A stretch of 64,000 nt of DNA from Mycobacterium sp. GTDB taxonomy: Bacteria > Actinomycetota > Actinomycetes > Mycobacteriales > Mycobacteriaceae. Shown here piece by piece: positions 1-26,998 of this stretch. The stretch covers positions 16,037-80,036 of the forward strand of contig JAOPWC010000127.1 in NCBI GenBank assembly GCA_025965895.1, written 5' to 3'. Position numbers and translations under genes: made by a program. Numbering within the stretch: position 1 is the first letter of the stretch; each line of letters opens with the position of its first letter. The notes beneath the pieces are model-generated. The model had not been told where the DNA came from. It did not search any database and saw only the letters and a program-made list of their open reading frames with translations.

Positions 1-735
<735 letters not shown>

Positions 736-1048: not shown

Positions 1049-2488
1049 TCAGACGTCGGGTGTGCGGTGGGCCCAGGGGTTCGCCTGTTCGAGCTGGCTG
1101 GCGATGCGGAACAGGACGTCTTCACGACCGTAGGCGGCGACGAGCTGCGCGCCGACCGGCAAGCCCTCGGCCGTCCACTGCAGCGGGAGGCTGATGGCTG
1201 GTTGGCCGCTGGTGTTGAACGGGGGAGTGAACGGCACGAACTGGCCGGCGCGCCGCATCGCCGACATCGGATGATCGGGGTTGTTGACGATGGTGCCGAG
1301 CTTGATCGGCACCTCGGCGAGTGTCGGCGTGAGCAGCAGATCCCAGCCGTCGTGCCACCACGACTGCAGCGCCCGCCGGTACTGGGCGACGGCTGACAGT
1401 GCGAGCGCATAGTCGATGGAGGTGAAGTGCCTGGCGAAGTCGGCCTGGACCCGGTTCATCGGCTCCAGTTCGTGATCGGCCAACGGACGGCCGAGCTGAT
1501 CTTCGAAGCGGCGCTGCGACAGTCCCATGTTGGCGCTCCACAGCGCGCCGAACTTCGAGCCGAACGTGTCGTCCTGCAATGCCGTCGGCCACGCCGCCTC
1601 GACATGGTGGCCCAACGATTCGAGCAGCTTGCCGACGGCCTGCGTGGCATCGCTGACGTCAGCCTCGACAAGGCCGCCCTGCGGGTGATGGTCGAGGATC
1701 CCGATGCGCAGCCGGCCCGGGTCCGCGCCGAGCTCGTCGACGTACGGACGTGTGGGCGGTGGCGCCATCACGGTGTCGCCGATGCCGGGCCCGCGGGTCG
1801 CGTCGAGCAACGCGGCGCTGTCGCGAACGGTGCGGCTGAGGCAGTGCTCGACCGACAGTCCGCTCTCGTCGCGGACCGGGCCGAGCGTGATGCGGCCCTG
1901 GCTCGGTTTGAGCCCGACGAGCCCGCAGCACGACGCCGGGATGCGGATCGACCCGCCGCCGTCGCTGGCGTGGGCGAACGGCACCATCCCCGCCGCGACG
2001 GCTGCGGCCGCACCACCGCTTGATCCACCGGGCGTGCGCGTGATGTCCCATGGGTTGCGGGTCGGTCCCCACGCGACCGGCTCGGTGGTCGGCACGCTGC
2101 CCAGCTCCGGGCTGTTCGTGCGGCCGGCGATCACCAGCCCCGCCGCGCGGTAGCGGCTGACCAGGGTCGTGTCGGCATCGGAGATGACGCGCGCTTCCTT
2201 GAACGCGACGTTGCCGTTGCTGATCGGCTGCCCCGCGTACCCGGCGAAGAGGTCCTTGATGAGGAACGGCACGCCGCGGAACGGGCCGTTGGGCAGATCG
2301 GCGCTTGCGGCGGTCTCGCGCGCGTGGTCGAACCAGCGGATCACGACCGCGTTGAGGACCGGATCGATGCGTTCGATGCGCTCGATCGCTGCCTCCAGCA
2401 GCTCGCTCGGCGACACCTCGCCCGACGCGACCAGGGCCACCTGATCGGTCGCATCCATCCAACGGGTCTGATCGGCAAGCGCGCTCAC
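1049..2488 (-). CDS. Amidase (amidase-signature family)
   Basis: 479 aa. AS motif [46 protein letters not shown]. Confidence 0.9.
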
Positions 2489-2602
2489 GCCAGCCTGTGT
2501 AGCACGAAATGCTCACGCCGTGAACGGGTCATCCGCCCGCGACGCATCGTGCCGGACTTTCGGCTGGCGGAAGTCATCTGACCAGCGCAAACGAACTGCT
2601 CG

Positions 2603-2713
2603 TCAGTCTTCGAAGTGACGGTCGTAGTCCCACCGCTCAATCCGCGACTGTAAGACGTGCATCCCGATGGTGGCTCCCAGGCCGATCAGCACAATCAACA
2701 CCACAGCCAACAT
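2603..2713 (-). CDS. Unannotated 36-aa single-TM mini-protein (MLAVVLIVLIGLGATIGMHVLQSRIERWDYDRHFED)
   Basis: The ATG lies 2 nt after the TGA of the upstream propeller gene. It is preceded by GAGGAGG (GCCGAGGAGGCGTGACGATG). Hydrophobic N-terminus with an acidic W-D-Y-D tail. Good GC3. Confidence 0.45.
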   Translation of the reverse strand: MLAVVLIVLIGLGATIGMHVLQSRIERWDYDRHFED

Positions 2714-2715
2714 CG

Positions 2716-4008
2716 TCACGCCTCCTCGGCGTCGCGCGGTAGCGATGCCACTGAGATGACGGTGACCGTGCCGGCCCAATAGTCCGCGACATAGAGCCGC
2801 TCACCGTCAGCGCTGAGCGCCACCGCCTCCGGATCGCCACCGACGTCGATCGTGTCGAGGACCGCGTTGCTGATCGTGTCGATCACCGACACGGCATGGT
2901 GGCCGAAATCCGTTATGTAAGCCCGCTTCCCGTCGCCACTGAACTGCAGCCGACGCGGCAGATCACCGGCACGGACAGATTCCGCGAGATTGGTCACCGT
3001 GTCAACGACGACCAGCGCGTCCAGGCATGTGACGTACAACTGCGTGCCGTCCGGTCGCACCGCTGCTGACAGCGGGGCGTCCACAGGGGAGACCGAGGTC
3101 GCGCATTGACGGGCCAGGTCGATCGACGAGACCGCGTTGGTGTCGTAGTGGGTGACGTAAAGCCCTGAACCGTCGGGGCTGACGGTGACGGTGCTCGGCG
3201 ACACCGGCACCTCAATAGTGTCGACGACGGTGTGAGCGTCGGTGTCGATTACCGAAACCGAACCGGAGCAGTACTGGTAGTAGGAGCTGCGCTCGCGTGT
3301 CACGACGTACAGGCGGCTGCCGTCGGGACTCACATCCAAGTCTGCCGCGTAGCTGTCCACCGGCACCATGGCCACCTTCGTGCCGTCGGCATCGATGACG
3401 GAGATCCAACTACTGTCACCCTCGCCGAGCATCGGGTGATGCGCCGAATAGATGTACTTGCCGTCCGGGCTGACGACCTCAGCGGTGCTCGGACTGTTGA
3501 CGACACTGCTCGCCGTGTTGTCGGCGGTGTTGATGATCGTGAGCGAACCGTCGTAGTCGGTGACGTAGAGAATTCTTCCGTCACCGCTCATACTCAGCCG
3601 TTTGACGTCGTGGCCGGTGGGAATGGTGGCGACGACGTGGTGGAAAGCACTGATCGCCATGACCGAGTCAGTGGTGGCGATGTACAGCTGATCATTGCCG
3701 GGGCTGACCGCGATGTCGCACACCCGGACGCCAAGCGGGATCGTCGTGACGACGGGCTCGCGTGTCCGCTCGCCGGCATCCGGAATCGAGGTGGCGTGCC
3801 GATCGGCCTTCGTGTCAACTGTCCATAGATGAGTACATGCCGGGCATTGCAGTAAAAGGCGCGTGCCTTCGTTCCGCAGCAAGTATTGCCAGTGGGTATC
3901 GCAATTGCGACGGCTTTCGCACTCAGCGCAGCCGTCGCCCTGATTGCAGTTGGGACAGGTAAGCCATGCCCGCCTGCTGCCGTCAGCGTCGGGGTCGATA
4001 GGCAACAT
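2716..4008 (-). CDS. Cys-rich zinc-ribbon + YVTN-type beta-propeller repeat protein (about 430 aa)
   Basis: ATG at 4008 is preceded by AAAGGA. N-terminus has CPNC-x5-CAEC-x6-C-x2-H ... CPAC-x-H. Eight repeats of the type VSPDG(K/S)xLYV (VSPGNDQLYIAT, MSGDGRILYVTD, VSPDGKYIYSAH, VSPDGSRLYVVT, VSPDGSGLYVTH, VRPDGTQLYVTC, FSGDGKRAYITD, LSADGERLYVAD). The frame stays open upstream to 4575, so a non-ATG start with a TM segment (GTG at 4161) cannot be excluded. Confidence 0.75.
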   Translation of the reverse strand: MLPIDPDADGSRRAWLTCPNCNQGDGCAECESRRNCDTHWQYLLRNEGTRLLLQCPACTHLWTVDTKADRHATSIPDAGERTREPVVTTIPLGVRVCDIAVSPGNDQLYIATTDSVMAISAFHHVVATIPTGHDVKRLSMSGDGRILYVTDYDGSLTIINTADNTASSVVNSPSTAEVVSPDGKYIYSAHHPMLGEGDSSWISVIDADGTKVAMVPVDSYAADLDVSPDGSRLYVVTRERSSYYQYCSGSVSVIDTDAHTVVDTIEVPVSPSTVTVSPDGSGLYVTHYDTNAVSSIDLARQCATSVSPVDAPLSAAVRPDGTQLYVTCLDALVVVDTVTNLAESVRAGDLPRRLQFSGDGKRAYITDFGHHAVSVIDTISNAVLDTIDVGGDPEAVALSADGERLYVADYWAGTVTVISVASLPRDAEEA

Positions 4009-4261
4009 GGTCAGTCCTTTAGATACTGTTATCTGTCCAGATCGCGCCGTCGCCGTCGAAAGCCAGATCGAATGCAAACGCAGCCGAAATATCCTGTGGC
4101 TCAACAGCTCGCCGGCTGCTATGAATAAGACAATCCCAGTTGTGAAACCAATTGTCGCCACTGCTGGCAGCCATTTGCCATACTTGCCAGCTGCAATTTC
4201 GCGGTGCTTGCCAGCTCCACCAGCGGCGATCGTGCCAGGGGCTCGACGCCCGTACAGCCCC

Positions 4262-4906
4262 TCAGCCGGCCCGGCGGTCCGCCACGAGTTCCTGGTGAGC
4301 GGCCTCGGTGAGCAGTTTGCGCAGTCGCTGTCGCCCCCGGTGGAGTCGCGACATGACGGTGCCTTTGGGGGTGCCCATGATCTCGGCGATCTCCCTGTAC
4401 CGGAACCCCTGCACATCGGCGTAATACAGCACAGTCCGGAACTCCTCCGGCAAAGTCTCCATCGCCGCCTTGATCGGGCTGTCAGGCAGCGCATCGAGCG
4501 CCTGGTCTTCGGCGGAACGCGTTGCCGCCCAGCCCGGAAGGGTATCGGTCCGGAGTTGCTGGTCTGTTGAGTCATCGAACGGGAACGCGGTCGGGCGGCG
4601 CTTGTTCTTGCGATAGCCGGTGATGTAGGTGTTGGTCATGATCCGGTGCAACCACGCGGTGGCGTCGGTTCCGGTCCGAAACGACCCAAAGCCGGCGTAT
4701 GCCCTCAGCATCGTCTCCTGGAGCAGATCCTCGGCATCCGCGTGATTGCGTGTCGTGCGCAGGGCGTGGTGGTAGAGCCGGGCCGCGACGGGCAGGGCAG
4801 CGGATTCGAAACGCGCACGATAGTCGTCCTGAGCCGAATCCTCTTCCGCTTGACCGCCATTTGCCGCCTCGACGCCCAAAGGCGGTTGCGGGGCAAGCGA
4901 TGTCAT
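4262..4906 (-). CDS. ECF RNA polymerase sigma factor, SigH family paralogue
   Basis: Region 2: [24 protein letters not shown]...[21 protein letters not shown]. Region 4: [41 protein letters not shown]. Collinear by eye with mycobacterial SigH. Confidence 0.9.
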
Positions 4907-5017
4907 GGGTCAAGGATTGCGGTATCGACACCACATGTCGTCAACGCTGGCGCCCATTGTTCTTTACTGCCAGCCGGAAAAGCCTGACAACGCCGCGCGT
5001 CGCCGCCGCGCCGCGGA

Positions 5018-5401
5018 CTAAGCCTGGCCGTCGATCAGTAGCCCATGAATTGCAGACGCGGACAGCGCCGCCTTCGGCACGAATCCCAGCGCGGGGCTGT
5101 CCTCTATCAGTTCCGCGAAGTCCTGTTGGGAGTGGGTCGAGGTCAAGATCACCGCGGGCGAACCCGCGCCTTCCCCCCGGTGCAGCCTCTGAGCCAAGTC
5201 GAATCCGTCCTCGCCGCCCAGGTCGACGTCGACGAGCATGACGTCGGGACCTAGCTGGGCGGCAGAATGCAACGCCTCGGCGATGGTCGATGCCACACCG
5301 ACCACTGCGATGCCACCGCTCTCGAGGACGCTCGTTGCGGTTTCCAGAAACTCGCGGTTGTCATCAACGATGAGGCAACGCACGGACTTCTGCGACACCA
5401 T
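5018..5401 (-). CDS. Stand-alone response-regulator receiver (CheY-like, no output domain)
   Basis: LIVDDNREF...DVMLVDVDLGGEDG...VILTS...GFVPKAAL, i.e. canonical DD / D / T / K receiver residues. Start chosen at MVSQKS; upstream Met codons are possible. Confidence 0.75.
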   Translation of the reverse strand: MVSQKSVRCLIVDDNREFLETATSVLESGGIAVVGVASTIAEALHSAAQLGPDVMLVDVDLGGEDGFDLAQRLHRGEGAGSPAVILTSTHSQQDFAELIEDSPALGFVPKAALSASAIHGLLIDGQA

Positions 5402-5682
5402 CAGACCACTCTCTCGATCGAAGGGACATTTGCGCATCCCGGCTAGCGGGAACCTGCAGCGCATGCCGCCAGGATGTTACCGCGCGATTACCTGTGCCGG
5501 TTGTCAACAGGCTTGGCGTAGTTGCTCCGCCCACCGTGTTCGGGAACGCGGCCAAACCCAGACTTGGGTGGTGGCTCCCAGCCGGGCCCTGACTCCCAGG
5601 ATGTGTACCTCGATTTCACGATCCCGCAGCAGCGCTCTGGGTGAGAGTCGTGACGGTGTTGTGCGCATGAGGTCGATCCTTC

Positions 5683-6597
5683 TCACCGACGTGCTTTTTC
5701 CGCTGCGGTGACGGCTGCGGCGACGTCGTCGTCGCCGTGTCCGTCTGCGATTGCTCGCCGCCACCGCTCGAGCAGCGCGGTCGTAAGGGCAAGTTGGACT
5801 CCGTGGTCGCTCGCCGCGTCTACTGCCAGGGTGGCGTCTTTCGCCGCATGTCGCAGCGGGAACCCGGGGGCGAAGTCGCCGCTCAGCATTGCGCCGGCTT
5901 TGTCCATGGCATAGCGCGCCGCCAATGCGCCGCCGTCGATGGTAGTCAAAAACAGCCGCGGATCCAGGCCCAGCCCCTCACTGAGCGCGAGCGATTCGGC
6001 AATTCCTTCGACAAGGATCGCCAGCCAGTTGTTGAGTACCAGCTTGAGCCGGCTACCGTCGCCCACCTCCGTCAGCCACACCGTACGGGACCCTAAGGTG
6101 CCGAAGATCGGCTCGAGCCGGGCCCGATGTGGCCGGCCTCCTGAAGCCAGGATGACCAGCTGTCGATGCCTGGCCGCCTCGGCGCTCCCGGACACCGGAG
6201 CGTCAACGAACGCAACTCCCTGCTGAGCGCCCAACTGCGCCAAGCGATCACACCACTTGACACCGACGGTGCTCATCTGCACCCATATTGCGCCCGGCTT
6301 GACCGCGTGCAGTGCCCCGTCGGGACCCGTCATCACGGCATCCACGGTGGCGCCGTCGCTGAGCATGGTGATCAGCACGTCTGCTCCGTGGGCCGCGAGG
6401 GCGGGGGAGGCCCGGTACGCGGCACCCGCTTGGATCAGCGCTTCGGTCTTGGCCCGCGAGCGGTTCCAGATTTGCACCTCGAACCCGGCGGTCAGCAGGT
6501 TGCGGACGAACTCCGAGCCCATGATGCCCGTGCCGAGCACCGCGATTCGCTGCACCTCAACGCGCGGTTGCGGCCCACCCGCGGTGTCGTCGCTCAT
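5683..6597 (-). CDS. NAD(P)-dependent oxidoreductase, 3-hydroxyisobutyrate/6-phosphogluconate dehydrogenase-like
   Basis: Rossmann motif IAVLGTGIMGSEFVRNLLTAGFEVQIWNRS. Start set at MSDDTAGG rather than the longest ORF. Confidence 0.8.
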   Translation of the reverse strand: MSDDTAGGPQPRVEVQRIAVLGTGIMGSEFVRNLLTAGFEVQIWNRSRAKTEALIQAGAAYRASPALAAHGADVLITMLSDGATVDAVMTGPDGALHAVKPGAIWVQMSTVGVKWCDRLAQLGAQQGVAFVDAPVSGSAEAARHRQLVILASGGRPHRARLEPIFGTLGSRTVWLTEVGDGSRLKLVLNNWLAILVEGIAESLALSEGLGLDPRLFLTTIDGGALAARYAMDKAGAMLSGDFAPGFPLRHAAKDATLAVDAASDHGVQLALTTALLERWRRAIADGHGDDDVAAAVTAAEKARR

Positions 6598-6756
6598 GCT
6601 TTCAGGATCGCCTGCGCGGGGGCTTGGTGTCGTCAACGCTGACGCCCATCCGAGATTCCGGTCAGCTGCAATCGGCGCCGCCGGCCAGGTGCCGACAGCC
6701 GTTTCGCCCGACCGTTTCGCCCGACTCGCCATGCCAAGTGGTGTGCTCGGTGCAAG

Positions 6757-7506
6757 ATGGTCTCGCAAGCTAGTCGCACCGCTTCGGAAGGACACCCGTT
6801 GCCCGACACGTCCAGCGCTCACGCCGGCCGGCCCGACGACGCCGATTCAGCGGCTGTCCCGTTGCGTGCGGTGGTCGCCGAAGACGAAACCCTGCTCCGC
6901 GAGGGTTTGGCCAGCCTGCTGGACCGCTCCGGATTTGCGGTCGTCGGTCAGGCCGGTAATGCCGTCGAATTGCTCGCGATCGTGCGCGATCAGTCGCCCG
7001 ACGTGGTGGTGGTCGACATCCGGATGCCGCCCACTCATACCACTGAGGGCCTGGACGCCGCCCGGGTGATCCGCCAGGAACTGCCTGACACCGGGATCAT
7101 GGTGTTGTCCGCCCACATCGATGTCGAGCACGCGATGGAGTTGCTGGCCAGCGGCCACGGGATCGGGTATCTCCTCAAGAGCCGGGTCACTGATGTCGCC
7201 GATTTCGTCGACAGCTTGCAGCGGATCGCAAAAGGCGCCTCGGTGGTGGACCCGGCACTGGTGCAGGAACTGGTGTCGGGACGTCGCCGTGACGACCCGC
7301 TGGCGGTGCTTTCCCCGCGCGAAGTCGAGGTGCTGGCGTTGATGGCCGAGGGCCGCTCCAACGCCGGCATCGCCCGTCGGCTATGGGTGACCGAGGGCAC
7401 CGTCGAGAAGCACGTCCGCAGCATTCTGACCAAACTGAACCTGCCCGAGGCAGACGACGACCATCGCCGGGTGCGTGCCGTGATCACGTTCCTTGACGCC
7501 AGGTGA
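6757..7506 (+). CDS. NarL/LuxR-family response regulator
   Basis: Receiver: AVVAEDETLLREGL...DVVVVDIRMPP. LuxR HTH: LSPREVEVLALMAEGRSNAGIARRLWVTEGTVEKHVRSILTKL. Start uncertain; an in-frame TTG at 6862 would give a typical short N-terminus. Confidence 0.85.
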   Translation: MVSQASRTASEGHPLPDTSSAHAGRPDDADSAAVPLRAVVAEDETLLREGLASLLDRSGFAVVGQAGNAVELLAIVRDQSPDVVVVDIRMPPTHTTEGLDAARVIRQELPDTGIMVLSAHIDVEHAMELLASGHGIGYLLKSRVTDVADFVDSLQRIAKGASVVDPALVQELVSGRRRDDPLAVLSPREVEVLALMAEGRSNAGIARRLWVTEGTVEKHVRSILTKLNLPEADDDHRRVRAVITFLDAR

Positions 7507-7657: not shown

Positions 7658-8632
7658 ATGAAAACCACAACACTCGGCAAGAGCGGGCTCCACGTTTCGC
7701 GGATAGCGTTCGGGACGTGGCAGCTCGGCGGAGATTGGGGCAGCTTCGACGAGGATGCCGCGATCGCGACGATCCGCCGGGCAAATGACGTCGGGGTCAA
7801 CTTCTTCGATACCGCCCAGGGCTACGGATTCGGCGCTTCTGAGCGCATCCTCGGCAAGGCCCTTCGTCCTGAGCTGATCCGCGAACGGGATCAGATTGTG
7901 ATCGCGACGAAAGGCGGTCTGCGGCCCACGGAGTCGGGACTGGTGCGCGATGCCAGCCCGGAATGGCTGCGCCGCGGCGTCGACGCCAGTCTGACCGCGC
8001 TTGGTGTCGAGCAGATCGACCTCTACCAGGTTCACTGGCCCGATCCCAAGGTTCCTGCGTCTGAGACGGCTGGTGCGCTCGCCGATCTCATCGCCGAGGG
8101 CAAGATCGCCCACGTCGGAGTGTCGAATTACGACACCGCCCAGATGGACCAGTTCTCAGCGACGCTTCCGGTGGAAACAGTGCAACCGCCCTATCATTTG
8201 TTCCGCCGCGACATCGAGGCCGAGCTGCTGCCGTATTGCCGCGTGCACGACATCGGCGTGTTGGTATACGGACCGTTGGCGCACGGTTTGCTCACTGGAA
8301 CACTCCAGCCCGACAGCCGGTTCGCCGACGACGACTGGCGCAGCAAGAGCGCAGTTTTCAGCGGCGAGACCTACCGGCGCAATCTCGAAGTCGTCGACGA
8401 TCTGAAGCGCTTCGCCGGCCAACTCGACGTCACGGTCAGCCAATTGGCCATCTCCTGGGTTCTTTCTCAGCCCGGCGTGCACGTCGCCATCGTCGGTGCG
8501 CGACGTATCAGCCACCTTGACGACAGCCTCGGCGCGGCCGACATCACCCTGACCGATGACGACCTTGCTCACATCGACAAGATCATGGGTTCGGCAACTC
8601 CGGTCGACGGCCCGTCTCCCGAAAGCGTGTGA
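7658..8632 (+). CDS. Aldo/keto reductase
   Basis: MKTTTLGKSGLHVSRIAFGTWQLGGDWG...FFDTAQGYGFGASERILG. Start at ATG 7658 rather than the longer ORF. Confidence 0.9.
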   Translation: MKTTTLGKSGLHVSRIAFGTWQLGGDWGSFDEDAAIATIRRANDVGVNFFDTAQGYGFGASERILGKALRPELIRERDQIVIATKGGLRPTESGLVRDASPEWLRRGVDASLTALGVEQIDLYQVHWPDPKVPASETAGALADLIAEGKIAHVGVSNYDTAQMDQFSATLPVETVQPPYHLFRRDIEAELLPYCRVHDIGVLVYGPLAHGLLTGTLQPDSRFADDDWRSKSAVFSGETYRRNLEVVDDLKRFAGQLDVTVSQLAISWVLSQPGVHVAIVGARRISHLDDSLGAADITLTDDDLAHIDKIMGSATPVDGPSPESV

Positions 8633-8642
8633 CGCCAACCGC

Positions 8643-8849
8643 TCACTGATGCACTGCCATCACTCGCCGCCGCGACAAATCCACCAGCGCCAGCGTGCCG
8701 GTGTCGTTCCGTGCGACCGTCACAGCGCCCGGTTGAACCGCGGTCACCCGTCCGTAGAACCCGCCTGGGCTTGCGTCCGACACGTGAACGTGCAAACCGG
8801 TGGCCGGCTGGCCGCCGGGCCCGCTGCCCCAAACGATCGTTGCGCTCAT
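8643..8849 (-). CDS. Hypothetical 68-aa protein
   Basis: ATG preceded by AAGGTGG. No recognisable motif. Confidence 0.3.
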   Translation of the reverse strand: MSATIVWGSGPGGQPATGLHVHVSDASPGGFYGRVTAVQPGAVTVARNDTGTLALVDLSRRRVMAVHQ

Positions 8850-9043
8850 GACGGCACCACCTTGATCTCGACGAATCTCGAAGATAAGCATCAGTTCTGT
8901 GGTGACAGATGTCGTCAACGCTGCCGGCCATCTCCGCATGGGGCAGCCGTCAGTTAAGACATACCTGCCAGCCGCCATCGACCGGCAGACAAGACAAGGA
9001 GCCGGCAGACAGGGCAGACAAGGAGAGGGCCTGCCGTCGAAAG

Positions 9044-16740: not shown

Positions 16741-19700
16741 TCAGGGGGTGTGCGCCGGGATCGTGATGCCCAGCGACGTTCCGGACCCCTGCGGGCTCAC
16801 CACTTCGATGTGTCCGCCGAGCGCTTCAATGCGGTCCTTGAGCCCGATGAGTCCAGACCCTTTGCGCGCGTCCGCTCCTCCTACACCGTCGTCGCGAATC
16901 GACAGGTAGAGATTGTCGTCATCGGTGCGGGCGGACACGGATACCTCCGAGGCCTGAGCATGCTTGGCAGCGTTGGTGAGGGCTTCGGCGACCACGTAGT
17001 AGGTGGCCACCTCGACAGGATCGGCGAACCGTCGATCGATGGTGAGGTCGAGGTTGACCGGGACCGCGCAGCGACGGGCGAGCGTCTTCAGCGCCGGGCT
17101 GAGGCCGCCCTTGGAGAGGATCGCCGGATGGATTCCGCGCGATATCTCCTGGAGATCCCTTGAGACGGCGGCCACTCCGGACAGGATCTCCGACAGCTGC
17201 CGTCTGTGGTCCTGCAGTTCGGGCGGCATTGAATCCTCCGCCATGCGTAGTTGCAAGCCCAGCGAAACCAGTCGTTGTTGAGCCCCGTCGTGCAGGTCGC
17301 GTTCCAGACGGCGTCGTGCCTCGTCGGCGGCGGCGACGATGCGGGCGCGTGAGGCGATCAACTCTGCGCCCGTGGCGGCGTTCGCGATCGCCGTGGCGAC
17401 GAGATCAGCGAAGTCGGCGATGCGCACCTCGGTGTCCGGCGACAACGGCTCCGGCCGCAACGAGCCGACGACAGCGGCACCCCACACGCGCCCGTCGATG
17501 ACGATGGGGACTCCCACCGCCGAATGAATGCCCAGTCCGCGAATGCGTCCGGCGTGGGGGCCGGGAGCATCGTCATGTCTGTCGATCCGTGCGGTCCGGC
17601 CGGTACGTAACACAGTCGCCGCGACATTGTCGGCCGCTAACGTGAGGCGTAGGCCTTTGGGCAGCTTCTGCCCGCCGTGGTGATAGATGGCAAGGGGGAC
17701 GAGCGTGTCGTCGGCGTCGTAGCGGTACACCGCGGCGTGGCCCACATCAAGAAACCGCGCCATCTCGTCGGCGACTGTGGAGAACACCTCGGACGGGCTG
17801 ACACCGCGCGCAACGAGGGTGGCGACGCGCCGCAGCGCGGCCTGCTGGTCGGCCAGGGCAGCAAGCTCGTCTCGGCTGGCCTGCAGTTCGGCGCGAGTGG
17901 CGGCGTTGGCGATTGCGGTAGCCACCAGGTCGGCGAAATCGCCGATACGGCCTTCGGTGTCGAGCGGCAGCGGCTCCGGTTGCGACGTACCGACGACCGC
18001 CGTTCCCCATACCCGTCCGTCCACGACGATCGGAGCGCCCACCCTGCACTGCACGCCCATCACACGCAGCCGTTCGGCGAGGGAGCCCGTGGCTGTCGCG
18101 TAGTCGTCCATCCGCGCGGCGCCGCTCGTACGTAATACCCTCGCGGCGACGTTGTCGCCCTCCAGCGTGACCAGCTCACCGACTGAAAGGTGTGGCTCTC
18201 CCGCTTCGGCGTAAGAGGCGAGGACGACCGCTGCGCCGTCGTCCTCGTAGCAGAACACCTCAGCGTTATCGACGTTCAGGCACCGGGCCATCTCCTCGGC
18301 CACCGCGGAAAACAGCTCCGACGGACTGACGCCGCGCGCGACGAGTGTCGCCACCGCACGCAACGCGGACTGCTGCGTCACGAGCACGCTGAGACTGTCG
18401 CGGCTGGCCTGCAAGTCGGTTCGGGCGGCGGCATTGGCGACGGCGGTAGCGACGAGATCGGCGAAATCGGCGATGCGCAGCTCGGTGTCCGGCGGCAGCG
18501 GCTCGGGGCCCTGGGAGCCGAGAGCGACCATGCCCCAGACCCGGCCGTTCACAACGATCGGGGCTCCCACCGTGCCGCGAAGCCCCATCGCGCGGATCTG
18601 TGCCGAGACGGGGCCAGGTGCGTTCTCGTGGCTGTCCATCCGCGCGGCGTGACCGCTGTCCAACACCCTCACAGCGAGGTTGTCGCCTTCCATCGAAAGC
18701 CGCTGCCCTATCAACGGTATGTTCTTCAGCCTGGGATCGAGGCGGCCGAGGGCCAGGATGACCAGCGTGCCGTCGTCGTCGAATCGGGTGACCGTGGCGT
18801 TAGCCGAATGCAGCCAGCCCGCCAATTCATCGGCCACCGCCGAAAACACCTCTGAGGGCATGGCTCCGCGCGCAACCAGCGTGGCGACCCGTCGCAGGGC
18901 GGCCTGCTGCTCGGCGAGCACGGCAAGTTCGTCACGGCTGTCCTGCAGTTCGGAGCGCGTCGCCGCGTTGGCGATCGCGGTGGCGACCAGGTCGGCGAAG
19001 TCGCAGATCCGTTCCTCGGTGTCCGGCGGCATCGGGTCCGGGCCGACCGAGCCGACGATCGCCGCCCCCCACAGCCTGCCGGTGACGACGACCGGCACCC
19101 CCACGATCGAACCGATGGCCGCCGCGCGGATGCGGGCGGCCTCCGGCCCGCTGACCTTGGCGTGGTTGTCGATTCTCGCGGGCAGGCCCGTGTGCAGGAC
19201 CCGCGCTCCGACGTCGTCGCCGACCAGCGGGATGCGCTCGCCGGTGGCCGGCATCTTGGCGATCCCCGGCTCGTACTGGACCGCCACCACCAACCCGGTG
19301 TCGTCGGGTTCGTAGCGCAGCAGCCCGGCGTTCACCACATGAAGGACTCGGGCCAGCTCGTCGGTAACGGCGGAGAACACCTCCGACGGACTGGCCCCAC
19401 GCGCCACCAGAGTGGCGACCCGCCGCAACGCGGCCTGCTGCTCGGCTAACACACTCAACCGGTCACGACTCGCTTCGACCGCGGCCTGGGCGCGGCGCAG
19501 CTGCGCCTGCTCGCCGCGCCGTTCGGTCACATCGCGGCCCACCGCATAAGACAGGCCGCGACGCCACACGACACTCCATTCGATCCACCGACGCGAGCCG
19601 TCGCTGCAGATGACCCGGTTCTCGACACTGACAGGGTCAGCGCTGATGGGCAGGCGCTCCAGCGTCTCGCGCGCCCGGTCCCGATCCTCGGGCACGACCA

Positions 19701-20622
19701 ACTCGAGATATGGTCGCGACACCAGCTGGTCGAGTGAGTAGCCGAGGAGCTGCTGTAACGCGGGATTGACGCGGATCACGTGCTGCGGGTCGCTGATGCA
19801 CAGCAGGTCGGAGGACAGTTGGAAGAAGCGCGCCAGTTCCTCGCGACTTGCCTCGAGGTCGCTGTTGATCGCCTCACGCTCGAGCCCCTCCCGAAGCATT
19901 TCCTCAAGCGGTGGCGCGACCCGCGCCCGGATGCGGCGCAGGCTCGGGTCCGGCAGATCAGCCGGAACCAGCAGCGTGCCGAGCCGGTTCGCGCCGTCGC
20001 ACAGGGGTAGCGCCGTGCGGTTGGTGTCCGACGCCACCGCCCCGAGCTCCAGCGCCGCGAACCGCAGCCCGAGGGCGCGGGCCAGGTGGTCGGCGGCGGT
20101 GTCGAGTGCGCCGCGCAGGTCGGCGGCGCCCAGGATGACACGGGCCAACTCCGCGGCGAGGTGCGATTCCCGGCGACGCTGATCTGCTTCGGTCGCGTGG
20201 GCGCGAGCCAGGCCGGCGACGAAATTCGTGCACAGCGCCACCACCAGGAAGACGGCCGCGGCCACGCCGTTCTGCAGGCTGAACAGTGCGAACCCACCGG
20301 CGGGCCAGTTACGGAAGTAGGCAAAGGCCAGTGTGCTGGCCACCGACACGGCAACCGAGAGGCCCAGCCCCCACAGCGATGAAACCACCAAGACGCCGAG
20401 GAGATAGATCGTGCCGAACGACTGCGCCCCGTCGATCTGCTTCAGCAGCACCACCAGAAGTGTTTCCAGGGCAATGGCTACGGCGCCCACCACGATGCCG
20501 ACCGCAAGCGGAGGAGCCGTCGGCCTGAGCAACAACTTCAGCACGAGTGCGCGGGCGCCGCCGCCAACCGCCGAACGTCCGATCGATGTCCAGCCAGCCA
20601 GGGGTGACCCGCGCTTGGTCAC
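16741..20622 (-). CDS. Giant sensor histidine kinase: DUF4118-like membrane domain - GAF-like - PAS - 4 tandem GAF - HisKA_3 - HATPase_c
   Basis: 1293 aa, GTG start. KdpD-type TM block at residues about 30-140. PAS about 265-365. HisKA_3 box RRRLERDLHDGAQQRL. ATPase: VVAEALTNAAKHA...IRDDGVGG...GSGLIGLKDRIEALGGHIEVVSPQGSGTSL. Confidence 0.9.
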   Translation of the reverse strand: MTKRGSPLAGWTSIGRSAVGGGARALVLKLLLRPTAPPLAVGIVVGAVAIALETLLVVLLKQIDGAQSFGTIYLLGVLVVSSLWGLGLSVAVSVASTLAFAYFRNWPAGGFALFSLQNGVAAAVFLVVALCTNFVAGLARAHATEADQRRRESHLAAELARVILGAADLRGALDTAADHLARALGLRFAALELGAVASDTNRTALPLCDGANRLGTLLVPADLPDPSLRRIRARVAPPLEEMLREGLEREAINSDLEASREELARFFQLSSDLLCISDPQHVIRVNPALQQLLGYSLDQLVSRPYLELVVPEDRDRARETLERLPISADPVSVENRVICSDGSRRWIEWSVVWRRGLSYAVGRDVTERRGEQAQLRRAQAAVEASRDRLSVLAEQQAALRRVATLVARGASPSEVFSAVTDELARVLHVVNAGLLRYEPDDTGLVVAVQYEPGIAKMPATGERIPLVGDDVGARVLHTGLPARIDNHAKVSGPEAARIRAAAIGSIVGVPVVVTGRLWGAAIVGSVGPDPMPPDTEERICDFADLVATAIANAATRSELQDSRDELAVLAEQQAALRRVATLVARGAMPSEVFSAVADELAGWLHSANATVTRFDDDGTLVILALGRLDPRLKNIPLIGQRLSMEGDNLAVRVLDSGHAARMDSHENAPGPVSAQIRAMGLRGTVGAPIVVNGRVWGMVALGSQGPEPLPPDTELRIADFADLVATAVANAAARTDLQASRDSLSVLVTQQSALRAVATLVARGVSPSELFSAVAEEMARCLNVDNAEVFCYEDDGAAVVLASYAEAGEPHLSVGELVTLEGDNVAARVLRTSGAARMDDYATATGSLAERLRVMGVQCRVGAPIVVDGRVWGTAVVGTSQPEPLPLDTEGRIGDFADLVATAIANAATRAELQASRDELAALADQQAALRRVATLVARGVSPSEVFSTVADEMARFLDVGHAAVYRYDADDTLVPLAIYHHGGQKLPKGLRLTLAADNVAATVLRTGRTARIDRHDDAPGPHAGRIRGLGIHSAVGVPIVIDGRVWGAAVVGSLRPEPLSPDTEVRIADFADLVATAIANAATGAELIASRARIVAAADEARRRLERDLHDGAQQRLVSLGLQLRMAEDSMPPELQDHRRQLSEILSGVAAVSRDLQEISRGIHPAILSKGGLSPALKTLARRCAVPVNLDLTIDRRFADPVEVATYYVVAEALTNAAKHAQASEVSVSARTDDDNLYLSIRDDGVGGADARKGSGLIGLKDRIEALGGHIEVVSPQGSGTSLGITIPAHTP
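17350..19467 (-). repeat. Four tandem GAF-domain repeat units of about 530 bp inside the kinase gene (18937-19467, 18403-18936, 17875-18402, 17350-17874)
   Basis: Each unit starts RD(E/S/R)L(A/S)(V/A)L..QQ(A/S)ALR(R/A)VATLVARG..PSE(V/L)FS(A/T)V. Each ends PP/PL/SPDTE.RI.DFADLVATA(I/V)ANAA....L(Q/I)(A/D)S. Similarity is also visible at DNA level. Confidence 0.85.
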
Positions 20623-24489: not shown

Positions 24490-24726
24490 ATGAGGCAGCG
24501 GAGCGACCCGGATCAACTGGTGTTCGTGTTCGACGTGACCTCCGACGAGATGCGTCGGCGCAGCGCCATATTCCACGCGATCGGAGACGACTGGAATCCG
24601 GCCGAGGCGCTGGCGCAGGAGGACCGGGCCTACGAAATGCTGTACTCCGGCCTCGACGCCGAACAACGGCGGATCCATGACGAGTTGGTGAGGGCGGGGG
24701 TCCTCCCCCCAAGGGCGGATCGCTAA
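24490..24726 (+). CDS. Hypothetical 78-aa protein
   Basis: AGGAGGA lies just before the ATG. Good GC3. No recognisable motif. Confidence 0.45.
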   Translation: MRQRSDPDQLVFVFDVTSDEMRRRSAIFHAIGDDWNPAEALAQEDRAYEMLYSGLDAEQRRIHDELVRAGVLPPRADR

Positions 24727-24889: not shown

Positions 24890-26998
24890 ATGAGTTCATC
24901 ACCGGTCAAGACGCATTGTCCGTACTGCTCACTGCAATGCGGGATCACCCTCGACGTGTCCACCGATCCCGTCACGCTTGCCCCGCAGGACGACTTCCCG
25001 ACCAATCGGGGCGGCTTGTGTGCGAAGGGGTGGACGGCGGCCGAGCTCTTAGGCCACCCCGAGCGGTTGACTCGGCCGCTGGTGCGCGACAGCCGCACAT
25101 CTGCGTTGCGTCCGGCGGCATGGGATGAGGCGCTGGAGCGGATCGTCGACGCGTTCCAGGTCGCTCAGCGGGTGTCCGGACGTCACGCGGTGGGCTGCTT
25201 CGGCGGCGGCGGCCTGACGAATGAGAAGGCTTATCAGTTAGGAAAATTCGCCCGTGTAGCGTTACGAACCTCGGCCATCGACTACAATGGCCGGTTCTGC
25301 ATGTCGTCGGCGGCGGCAGCGTCGATCCGCTCGTTCGGAATCGACCGCGGCATGCCCTTCCCGCTGACCGACATCGCGCACGCCGACGTGATACTTCTCG
25401 TCGGCGGCAACCCCGCCGACACACTGCCGCCGGCGATGCAGTTCTTCGAGAAAGGCCGCGCGCGGGGGGCTGTGCACATCGTCGTCGACCCCAGGCGCAC
25501 CGCGACCGCCCGCACCGCGGATCTGCACCTGCAACCGGTGCCCGGCACGGACCTGGCGCTGGCCAACGGCATACTCAACGTCGCCATCCGCGAACACCTC
25601 ATCGATGACACGTACATTGCGGAGCGGACAACCGGATTCGAGGCGGTCCGCCGGGCCGTGCGGCTGTACTGGCCGGATCGGGTCGAGCGGATCAGCGGGG
25701 TGGCCGAAACTGACATCGTCGCCGCGGCCCGGCTCCTGGCCGGCGCGCAGCGGGCGATGGTCCTGACGGCCCGTGGCGCGGAGCAGCACAGCTCCGGGAC
25801 CGACACCGTCCAGGCGTTCATCAACCTGGCCCTGGCGCTGGGGCTGCCCGGCAGCCGGTATTCGGGTTTTGCCACGATCACCGGCCAGGGCAACGGCCAG
25901 GGCGGTCGCGAGCACGGCCAGAAGGCAGATCAGTTGCCGGGGTATCGGAAACTCGACGACCCCGTCGCGCGTGCCCATGTCGCGGCGATCTGGGGCGTCG
26001 ATCCCGGCGATCTGCCGTTACCGGGGCGGTCAGCCTACGAAATGCTCGACGGCATCGGCACTCCGGCAGGTGTGCGCGCGCTGTGGGTGATGGCGTCCAA
26101 TATCGCTGTCTCGGCACCGCGCTCGCGGCACATTGCCGACAAATTGGGGCAGCTCGACTTCCTGGTCGTTTCCGACATCTTCCTTTCAGAAACGGCGGCC
26201 ATGGCCGACGTCGTGTTGCCGACCGCCCAGTGGGCCGAGGAGTCGGGCACGATGACCAATCTGGAGGGCCGCGTGATTCTGCGGCGGCAGGCGACATCAC
26301 CTCCCGGGGAGGTGCGTACCGACCTCGACGTGATGGCCGACCTTGCTAAAAGACTTGGTGCTCAGGGTTTCTCGGCTGACGCGGACGAAGTGTTCGACGA
26401 GTTGACGCGAGCGAGCCGGGGCGGCAGCGCCGACTACGCCGGCATCACATACGAACGGATCGCCGCCGGGAGCGGCGTGTTCTGGCCGTGCCCGTCGCCT
26501 CGGCATCCGGGCACGCCCCGGCCTTTCACCGAGGACTTTCCGACGCCTGATCGACGAGCACATTTTCATGCCGTCGAGCAGCGTGGTGCCGCAGAGCAGC
26601 CCGACGAGCAGTTCCCCTACTACCTGACGACGGGGCGACTGCTCCGGCAGTACCAGTCGGGCACCCAGACACGCCGGGTGGGATCGCTGTTGGAGGCGGA
26701 ACCGGAGCCGGTGGCTCAGATCCATGCCGACCTGGCCCGCCGCATCGGGGTCGCGGATGGCGACACGGTGCGACTGGCGACTCGGCGCGGCGAAGCGGTC
26801 ATGGCGGTACGCATCGTCCCCGGCATCCGGCCCGATACCGTGTTCGCGCCGTTTCACTGGGGTGGATCGGGAAATGTCAACCAGCTGACCAATCCCGTGC
26901 TCGACGAGCACTCCCGAATGCCCGAGTTCAAAGTGTGCGCGGTCGCCGTCGCCCGCGTCGACGTACCCGGTTCGACCGAGGAAGGTGCCACCGCATGA
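24890..26998 (+). CDS. nasA: Assimilatory nitrate reductase catalytic subunit (molybdopterin oxidoreductase, NasA/NarB type)
   Basis: N-terminal 4Fe-4S CPYCSLQCG. MGD-binding domains. Cluster context with nirBD/narK. Confidence 0.88.
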   Translation: MSSSPVKTHCPYCSLQCGITLDVSTDPVTLAPQDDFPTNRGGLCAKGWTAAELLGHPERLTRPLVRDSRTSALRPAAWDEALERIVDAFQVAQRVSGRHAVGCFGGGGLTNEKAYQLGKFARVALRTSAIDYNGRFCMSSAAAASIRSFGIDRGMPFPLTDIAHADVILLVGGNPADTLPPAMQFFEKGRARGAVHIVVDPRRTATARTADLHLQPVPGTDLALANGILNVAIREHLIDDTYIAERTTGFEAVRRAVRLYWPDRVERISGVAETDIVAAARLLAGAQRAMVLTARGAEQHSSGTDTVQAFINLALALGLPGSRYSGFATITGQGNGQGGREHGQKADQLPGYRKLDDPVARAHVAAIWGVDPGDLPLPGRSAYEMLDGIGTPAGVRALWVMASNIAVSAPRSRHIADKLGQLDFLVVSDIFLSETAAMADVVLPTAQWAEESGTMTNLEGRVILRRQATSPPGEVRTDLDVMADLAKRLGAQGFSADADEVFDELTRASRGGSADYAGITYERIAAGSGVFWPCPSPRHPGTPRPFTEDFPTPDRRAHFHAVEQRGAAEQPDEQFPYYLTTGRLLRQYQSGTQTRRVGSLLEAEPEPVAQIHADLARRIGVADGDTVRLATRRGEAVMAVRIVPGIRPDTVFAPFHWGGSGNVNQLTNPVLDEHSRMPEFKVCAVAVARVDVPGSTEEGATA

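Follow-up and report, generated by a model that had tools for sequence, protein, structure and literature searches.

What controls a SigH-family sigma factor when the gene that follows it does not encode the expected anti-sigma factor? SigH-family sigmas are normally held by zinc- or thiol-dependent proteins, and of the many SigH paralogues of environmental mycobacteria neither the control nor the regulons are known. The question is raised by a stretch of 64,000 nt from a Mycobacterium contig (JAOPWC010000127.1), here called the window, in which a gene for an extracytoplasmic function (ECF) sigma factor is followed by one for a protein that joins a cysteine-rich zinc module to a beta-propeller (the Zn-propeller). 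A sequence-only reading of this locus had remarked that such a fusion is not a known anti-sigma architecture, which still stands, and had proposed either a non-canonical anti-sigma factor responsive to thiols or metals or a sensor controlled by the sigma factor. Our preferred answer, held with only a little more confidence than doubt, is that the locus is a two-component-linked, autoregulated SigH-family island in which the Zn-propeller gene and a coupled small peptide are regulon cargo, read through from the operon upstream.

All coordinates given here are positions in the window, and the related loci with which it was compared carry L numbers. The minus-strand genes run in the order solo receiver, ECF sigma factor, 253-bp spacer, 430-aa propeller open reading frame (ORF) and 36-aa ORF:

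5018..5464, minus strand: stand-alone receiver, a solo response regulator (Pfam Response_reg, E 5e-17)
4262..4906, minus strand: ECF sigma factor of 214 aa, a SigH paralogue by sequence (Sigma70_r2 and r4_2; TIGR02947 match)
4009..4261, minus strand: spacer, read as a decayed promoter and leader-ORF cassette (alignment to relatives, register table and GC content at third codon positions, GC3)
2716..4008, minus strand: whole zinc-ribbon propeller gene, 430 aa plus stop (ORF and homologues)
3814..4008, minus strand: predicted N-terminal double-zinc module, residues 1-65 (seven Cys and one His)
2752..3753, minus strand: eight-bladed YVTN beta-propeller, residues 86-419 (TIGR02276 and AlphaFold2)
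2603..2713, minus strand: 36-aa single-pass membrane peptide (coupled ATG, GAGGAGG Shine-Dalgarno sequence)

Much of this had been read from the letters before any search was made, and the analysis upholds it: the stand-alone receiver gene before the sigma gene on the same strand, the collinearity of the sigma factor with SigH, the missing zinc-associated anti-sigma (ZAS) gene, the lower-GC spacer that stays open in frame, the ATG start at 4008 without a signal peptide, the eight YVTN-like blades, and the transmembrane peptide that begins 2 nt after the propeller gene behind a Shine-Dalgarno sequence.

The sigma factor shares 63% identity over 173 residues with an annotated Mycobacterium SigH, and the segments that read the promoter, the sigma-2 loop WLxRI(L/M)TNTYI and the sigma-4 helix, are conserved between the two. 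Among NCBIfam families it matches TIGR02947 (SigH_actino) best, at 223.6 bits and below the cut-off of 251.55. Because of this combination, we class it by sequence as a close SigH paralogue and not the equivalog, and its promoter specificity is probably SigH-like. The motif H-x3-C-x2-C does not occur in the genuine reading frames of positions 2400-5600, and hence no ZAS gene follows the sigma gene; nor is any anti-sigma-like ORF visible in the window. In sigma sequence, and in the SigH-type promoters that stand before the sigma genes of its orthologues, the locus resembles SigH/RshA of Mycobacterium, SigR/RsrA of Streptomyces and the ECF12 sigmas with ZAS partners. It differs from SigH/RshA and SigR/RsrA in its score below the TIGR02947 cut-off, in the lack of a following ZAS gene and in its two-component neighbors.

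Genes that the sigma factor may transcribe are suggested by a repeated promoter cassette. The SigH promoter consensus in Mycobacterium tuberculosis is GGAAYA/GTT (PMC6411747). Within 5 kb of the minus strand we found four copies of one cassette of ~100 nt, ranging from intact to decayed, which extend over 6634-6680, 4942-4985, ~8914-8960 and 4158-4200 and have the core GGCGTYAGCGTTGACGACA. The fourth lies in the spacer, and the promoter elements of the other three are as follows:

6634..6659, minus strand: intact SigH-type cassette, GGAAT-N17-GTTG, with a conserved leader to the ATG at 6597 and in register with the cassettes of relatives
4942..4967, minus strand: cassette copy before the sigma gene, with the -10 GTTG kept, the -35 weakened to GTAAA and the ATG at 4906 at the conserved distance
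~8914-8939, minus strand: cassette copy without a -35 before the gene for p74, a small conserved cluster protein (register alignment)

Conservation runs through the N17 spacer (..GATTGGCGTYAGC) and past the -10 (ACGACATC). Three sigma orthologues (L087, L089 and L090) have a perfect GGAAT-N17-GTTG upstream, and its distance from the sigma start is constant. In L003 the GGAAY-N17-GTTG cassette stands before a leader ORF and the Zn-propeller gene, with one-base variants in L001, L004, L005 and L031, while the cassettes of L007 and L043 have GGCAC in the -35. An autoregulatory promoter of the form GGAAY-N16-18-GTT is present, then, before the orthologous sigma genes and in the operon-head copy of the window (6659-6634), the window's sigma-proximal -35 being the altered GTAAA. 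The simplest reading of these sequences is positive autoregulation together with a local regulon to which, in relatives, the Zn-propeller gene belongs, and the sigma-controlled part of the "sigma-controlled sensor" proposed earlier is favored by them. Cassette cores without a -35 (GGGCGCTAGCGCTGACGACAG) also lie a short way downstream of Zn-propeller genes with no sigma gene in the vicinity, at L006 9371, L008 9383 and L010 9318.

The copy in the spacer is best understood from five relatives with the order sigma, gap, propeller (L001, L003, L004, L005 and L031). In these loci the gap is 319-421 bp long and contains a conserved block, GATTGCAGCTGACC-GGAAC-N17-GTTG-ACGACATCC, with an ATG ~35 nt further on. 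This ATG opens a candidate leader ORF of ~60 aa (MG[FY]xPHPxGSPL[VL]RRWIA[IT]HMAD...), the stop of which overlaps the propeller start as ATGA or GTGA; its coding signal is modest, with synonymous changes at 29% in frame against 16-19% out of frame. The spacer of the window aligns to the same block (common CGCG..ATTGCAGCTG) and retains a -35 remnant, GTATG (4183-4179), a -10 remnant, GTGG (4161-4158), and the former start of the leader ORF, its ATG now ATA (4122-4120). Since all three elements are damaged, and since GTG 4161 falls on the former -10, the low-GC spacer is by alignment the decayed form of the cassette, made up of a SigH-type promoter and a leader ORF, from which relatives would transcribe the propeller gene. 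The spacer has a GC content of 0.515-0.58 against ~0.65 on both flanks, and although it is open in frame with the propeller gene, its GC3 of 0.55-0.58 in all three frames, compared with 0.78-0.81 in the surrounding genes, marks it as non-coding. An Rfam scan of 2400-5700 returned nothing relevant. A riboswitch or other leader RNA in the spacer was considered and dropped, with no Rfam family and a folding z of -1.2.

The open frame had also suggested a longer, membrane-anchored form of the protein beginning at GTG 4161, which would place the Cys module and the propeller outside the cell, and the residues encoded by 4161-4090 do look hydrophobic. We find this form scarcely credible. The proposed start sits at the -10 of the decayed promoter, the extension has a GC3 of 0.55 against 0.81 in the gene, and relatives carry the corresponding stretch in another frame with a stop that overlaps the propeller start. 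Furthermore, nearly all full-length homologues, as well as the stand-alone relatives of the zinc module, begin with M or V, 0-3 residues and then LPIDP. On account of these N-termini, the protein is assigned its start at ATG 4008, which has AAGGA 7 nt upstream. No signal peptide was found in the protein; a twin-arginine-like SRRAWL was rejected as a Tat signal, as no hydrophobic region comes after it.

The neighborhood of the sigma gene in its relatives points to a different set of partners, for which the following features are needed:

6757..7506, plus strand: NarL/GerE-type response regulator (RR-GerE; Pfam Response_reg and GerE), divergent from the minus-strand operon
5683..6597, minus strand: NAD-binding dehydrogenase of the 6PGDH/HIBADH type (Pfam NAD_binding_2 and NAD_binding_11), the first gene behind the intact cassette
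8652..8825, minus strand: p74 homologue (homologues in related clusters)
16741-20622, minus strand: PAS/GAF/HisKA_3 kinase of 1293 aa, with 48% identity to the kinase of related clusters
L087 5671-6330, L089 5669-6334 and L090 5684-6391: cytoplasmic 219-235-aa protein

The four closest sigma-orthologue loci recovered (L087-L090, 67% identity) are syntenic with the window and share the order PAS/GAF HisKA_3 kinase, p74, aldo-keto reductase (AKR), RR-GerE, solo receiver and sigma factor. By this synteny the dehydrogenase gene of the window is an insertion that parts RR-GerE from the solo receiver; L032 also has it, after the sigma gene. RR-GerE is 71-87% identical to its counterparts in related clusters, and the 1293-aa kinase, ~12 kb from the sigma gene, is the probable cognate kinase. 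The propeller is absent from all four loci. Each has the 219-235-aa protein tightly coupled after the sigma gene, either 25 nt from it or overlapping it, and in L087 and L089 Ku comes next. This protein has no family match, is unrelated to the propeller and is absent from the window; we regard it as a better candidate for a novel anti-sigma factor than the propeller. At other sigma loci the genes after the sigma gene are AKR and dehydrogenase, TetR or methyltransferase genes. The solo receiver adjoins the sigma gene in 12 of the 14 assessable sigma loci, and RR-GerE and the PAS/GAF HisKA_3 kinase recur at them; given this and the synteny, the constant companions of the sigma factor are two-component proteins and not the propeller. 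p74, found at 8652-8825 in the window, L001 11068-11274, L003 5767-5991 and L087 2430-2591, has the motif ..HVSDASPxGFxGxVTAV.. and in relatives stands directly before a second Zn-propeller paralogue; its only family match is a weak precomputed hit to DUF7393.

Such an arrangement has precedents. The Mycobacterium ECF12 subgroups s2 and s9 are listed without an anti-sigma factor and are presumably transcriptionally regulated (PMC8999054), and several other ECF groups are under two-component control (PMC7826278). Like ECF39 (sigmaE-CseBC), ECF32, ECF234 and ECF12s2/s9, the window locus has no neighboring anti-sigma gene, and like the ECFs linked to two-component systems it has a histidine kinase, a DNA-binding response regulator and a receiver conserved beside the sigma gene. 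Neither an additional solo receiver nor a strong autoregulatory cassette has been described for sigmaE-CseBC.

In the island that we propose, a positively autoregulated SigH-family (ECF12-like) sigma factor of an environmental Mycobacterium would be controlled by a two-component system, acting either on its transcription or through the receiver. The missing ZAS partner, taken with the conserved receiver, NarL-type regulator and PAS/GAF kinase, makes this the most likely form of control. The propeller gene would be cargo of the sigma regulon and not an anti-sigma gene. In relatives it would be transcribed from its own GGAAY-N17-GTTG promoter behind the ~60-aa leader ORF, and in the window it is probably read through from the dehydrogenase-receiver-sigma operon, which the intact cassette at 6659-6634 heads. 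Scans for sigma-70 promoters and for intrinsic terminators found none. The likeliest role for the Zn-propeller protein would be that of a stress-induced cytoplasmic scaffold or adaptor that binds partners through its zinc ribbon, and the coupled 36-aa peptide may tether it to the membrane.

The N-terminus of the 430-aa protein reads MLPIDPDADGSRRAWLTCPNCNQGDGCAECESRRNCDTHWQ...LQCPACTH, and its Cys pattern is CPNC-x5-CAEC-x5-C-x2-H...CPAC-x-H, which matches the motif first described except that the gap from CAEC to the next Cys is five residues, not six. C18, C21, C27, C30, C36, H39, C55 and C58 are invariant in 19 homologues, so that the Cys conservation on which the anti-sigma proposal had been made to depend is indeed there. 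Eight invariant ligands are enough for two tetrahedral zinc sites, and the module is predicted to be a double-zinc ribbon with a C4 and a C3H site. Profile searches placed it in no Pfam or NCBIfam family, and neither database gave a zf-HC2 or anti-sigma-domain match. TFIIS/Rpb9 zinc ribbons matched C27...C58 below threshold (Pfam 14-16 bits against a cut-off of 21, E 0.008-0.035); the match to Rpb9 in the PDB was likewise weak (E 0.008), and that by Foldseek (E 0.36, TM-score ~0.5) was not significant. These best, though weak, matches share with the C-terminal ribbon of TFIIS/Rpb9 (PF01096) a C-x2-C...C-x2-C pair flanking a three-stranded sheet, whereas the module has an interleaved second site, CxxC...C-x2-H, and lacks the acidic hairpin; as all scores are sub-threshold, homology is unproven. 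AlphaFold2 models give the module one helix of four residues and a three-stranded sheet, with a predicted local distance difference test score (pLDDT) of 74-87, and on these models it would be a beta-rich zinc ribbon and not a helical anti-sigma domain.

Beyond a linker modeled as disordered (residues 66-81), the propeller is predicted with more confidence. The model of the protein, built on 27 homologues, has a mean pLDDT of 86.6, with values >90 in the propeller, where 32 strands over residues 86-419 form eight four-stranded blades; eight S/RxDGxxxY motifs are visible in the sequence, and the highest TM-scores of the model are to eight-bladed propellers. The YVTN repeats match TIGR02276 at 90.9 bits, compared with a cut-off of 27.85. 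These repeats are shared with YVTN/YncE-type propellers, including NF048007, a stress-induced mycobacterial family that stabilizes the MmpL3/TtfA complex. The window protein differs from NF048007 in having eight blades and not seven, and its partial match of 88.8 bits is far under the 600-bit cut-off of that family. To our knowledge, the N-terminal zinc module is found in no characterized propeller. Within the gene, GC3 is 0.65 over the module codons (3814-4008) and 0.81 over the propeller part (2719-3813), a gap that may stem from different origins or from codon constraints.

The 36-aa peptide starts at ATG 2713, 2 nt past the propeller stop and preceded by GAGGAGG, and the composition of its ORF is coding-like (GC3 0.81, GC2, the second-position value, 0.31). 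Homologues occur in three other loci, in two of which (L007 and L043) they are found together with Zn-module genes. In L007 (~5000-5570), DUF6400, a stand-alone Zn protein and the peptide homologue form a trio beside RR-GerE and the solo receiver; in L043 (~3534-3926), the peptide homologue lies beside the same response regulators, and neither locus has a sigma gene in range. In L090 it follows the sigma gene.

The distribution of the module bears directly on what it does. A HMMER search against 1.84 billion representatives returned 70 clusters at E <= 1e-3. By these searches it is a rare, previously unnamed family, absent from Pfam and NCBIfam. Hits of 160-210 aa were rejected as new architectures, being gene-call artefacts from frameshifted propeller genes. 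The 175 genome relatives are mostly stand-alone proteins of ~75 aa, from Mycobacterium, Mycolicibacterium, Rhodococcus, Actinokineospora and Streptomyces, and in tblastn the window module is 60-73% identical to stand-alone members. It has their pattern, with the LPIDP N-terminus and C-x2-C-x5-C-x2-C-x5-C-x2-H...C-x2-C. On annotated contigs, a DUF6400 gene precedes the stand-alone Zn gene, its stop overlapping the start of the latter, in surroundings that vary and are unlinked to sigma factors. The window module is thus of the same kind as these small, Cys-rich, DUF6400-associated actinobacterial proteins, with all eight ligands, but it is fused to a propeller and has a decayed spacer, not DUF6400, in front. 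Stand-alone Zn proteins (L014-L083, at ~8001-8240 of each locus) have an Arg-rich tail and very often end in "-AA", an ending that recalls ClpX-type C-terminal degrons.

Propeller fusions are a minority of the occurrences of the module. We counted 18 fusion loci, window included. A sigma gene lies directly upstream on the same strand in six of them (the window, L001, L003, L004, L005 and L031) and within 8 kb in another orientation in four more, leaving eight with none; seven have neither a sigma gene nor a receiver nearby. A survey of linkage to sigma genes had been named as a check: the propeller stands beside a sigma gene in 6/18 loci and within 8 kb of one in 10/18, while the module itself is mostly stand-alone and sigma-free. 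Literature searches on DUF6400 and on propeller-type anti-sigma factors found nothing relevant.

How far do these observations separate the proposed island from other explanations? The idea that prompted the analysis is a non-canonical anti-sigma factor, whose Cys/His module would bind the SigH paralogue and release it upon thiol oxidation or zinc loss, with the propeller as sensor or scaffold. The invariant ligands, the position of the propeller gene directly behind the sigma gene in six loci, the habit of SigH-family sigmas of being held by zinc/thiol proteins and the absence of any other candidate in the window all speak for it, and most homologues even contain the ZAS motif H-x3-C-x2-C literally, as HG[HR]DCxxC. 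In the window, however, the sequence is CNQGDGCAEC; Gln replaces the His of many homologues, and the position is not invariant. The predicted fold is a beta-ribbon, no anti-sigma profile matches it, and 253-421 bp of non-coding DNA with a separate promoter lie between the sigma and propeller genes, which are not translationally coupled. The closest sigma-orthologue loci do without the propeller gene and have a different coupled partner, and the module is found mostly with DUF6400, unlinked to sigma genes. Motif, fold, coupling and distribution thus fail to support a thiol- or metal-responsive anti-sigma factor, and we consider it improbable. A slightly longer shot still is a bolder version, which would make the module a new zinc/thiol switch of Actinobacteria that binds sigma factors or RNA polymerase: as a stand-alone protein it would act with DUF6400, and when fused to the propeller it would modulate the SigH paralogue that lacks RshA, with the peptide tethering the complex to the membrane. 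Less far-fetched, though we think it unlikely, is that the Zn-propeller and peptide pair is an independent cassette, kin to the modules of DUF6400, Zn protein and peptide, that merely shares a variable signaling island with the sigma gene. Eight of the fusion loci have no sigma gene, and gene order and orientation around the sigma gene vary. The L007 trio and the L043 peptide homologue lie beside the same regulators with no sigma gene in range, and the GC3 of the module (0.65) departs from that of the propeller (0.81). What stands against mere co-location is that the same extended promoter and leader cassette precedes both sigma and propeller genes in several loci, which argues for co-regulation.

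The proposed island has difficulties of its own. By itself the motif GGAAY-N15-19-GTT shows no enrichment, with 8 occurrences in the window where 9.9 would be expected, and only the extended cassette, aligned in register, is informative. Promoters were assigned by sequence, and in the window the copy that stands before the propeller gene has degenerated, which would make any dependence on the sigma factor indirect here. Conservation of the cassette goes further than a sigma factor would require, into the N17 spacer and past the -10, and some copies have no -35; a different or second regulator is therefore possible, and one such as the adjacent NarL-type protein may bind at the cassette. The adjacency of sigma and propeller genes in six loci is beyond chance, and an interaction between the proteins would explain it too. 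A single metagenome survey supplied many of the related loci, and these may be non-independent. Finally, with no other anti-sigma candidate visible in the window, post-translational control of the sigma factor is left unexplained.

Elsewhere in the window, the partner of the stand-alone module family is present in a setting of its own:

24517-24726, plus strand: DUF6400 gene (PF19938, E 1e-31)

This is the only DUF6400 gene of the window, 20 kb away from the propeller gene, and no zinc-ribbon gene follows it, unlike the overlapping pair found in every other genome examined. A molybdopterin-type oxidoreductase starts beyond it at 24890, and at the edge of the window (22-735, plus strand) lies a C-terminal domain like that of resuscitation-promoting factors (Rpf), in keeping with a mycobacterial origin.

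SigH paralogues without a ZAS partner and ECF sigmas tied to two-component systems are each of a known kind, and it is their combination here that is new. The locus would represent a SigH-family sigma factor tied to a two-component system in place of a ZAS protein, with a recognizable cassette that marks its likely targets and so offers a testable regulon. It also brings to light a new zinc-ribbon family, with seven Cys and one His, whose members either accompany DUF6400 or are fused to an eight-bladed propeller. Further by-products are a conserved 36-aa peptide, a repeated promoter and leader cassette, and a family-less anti-sigma candidate in the loci of the closest orthologues. These findings do not overturn current understanding, and are of interest to specialists in mycobacterial signaling.

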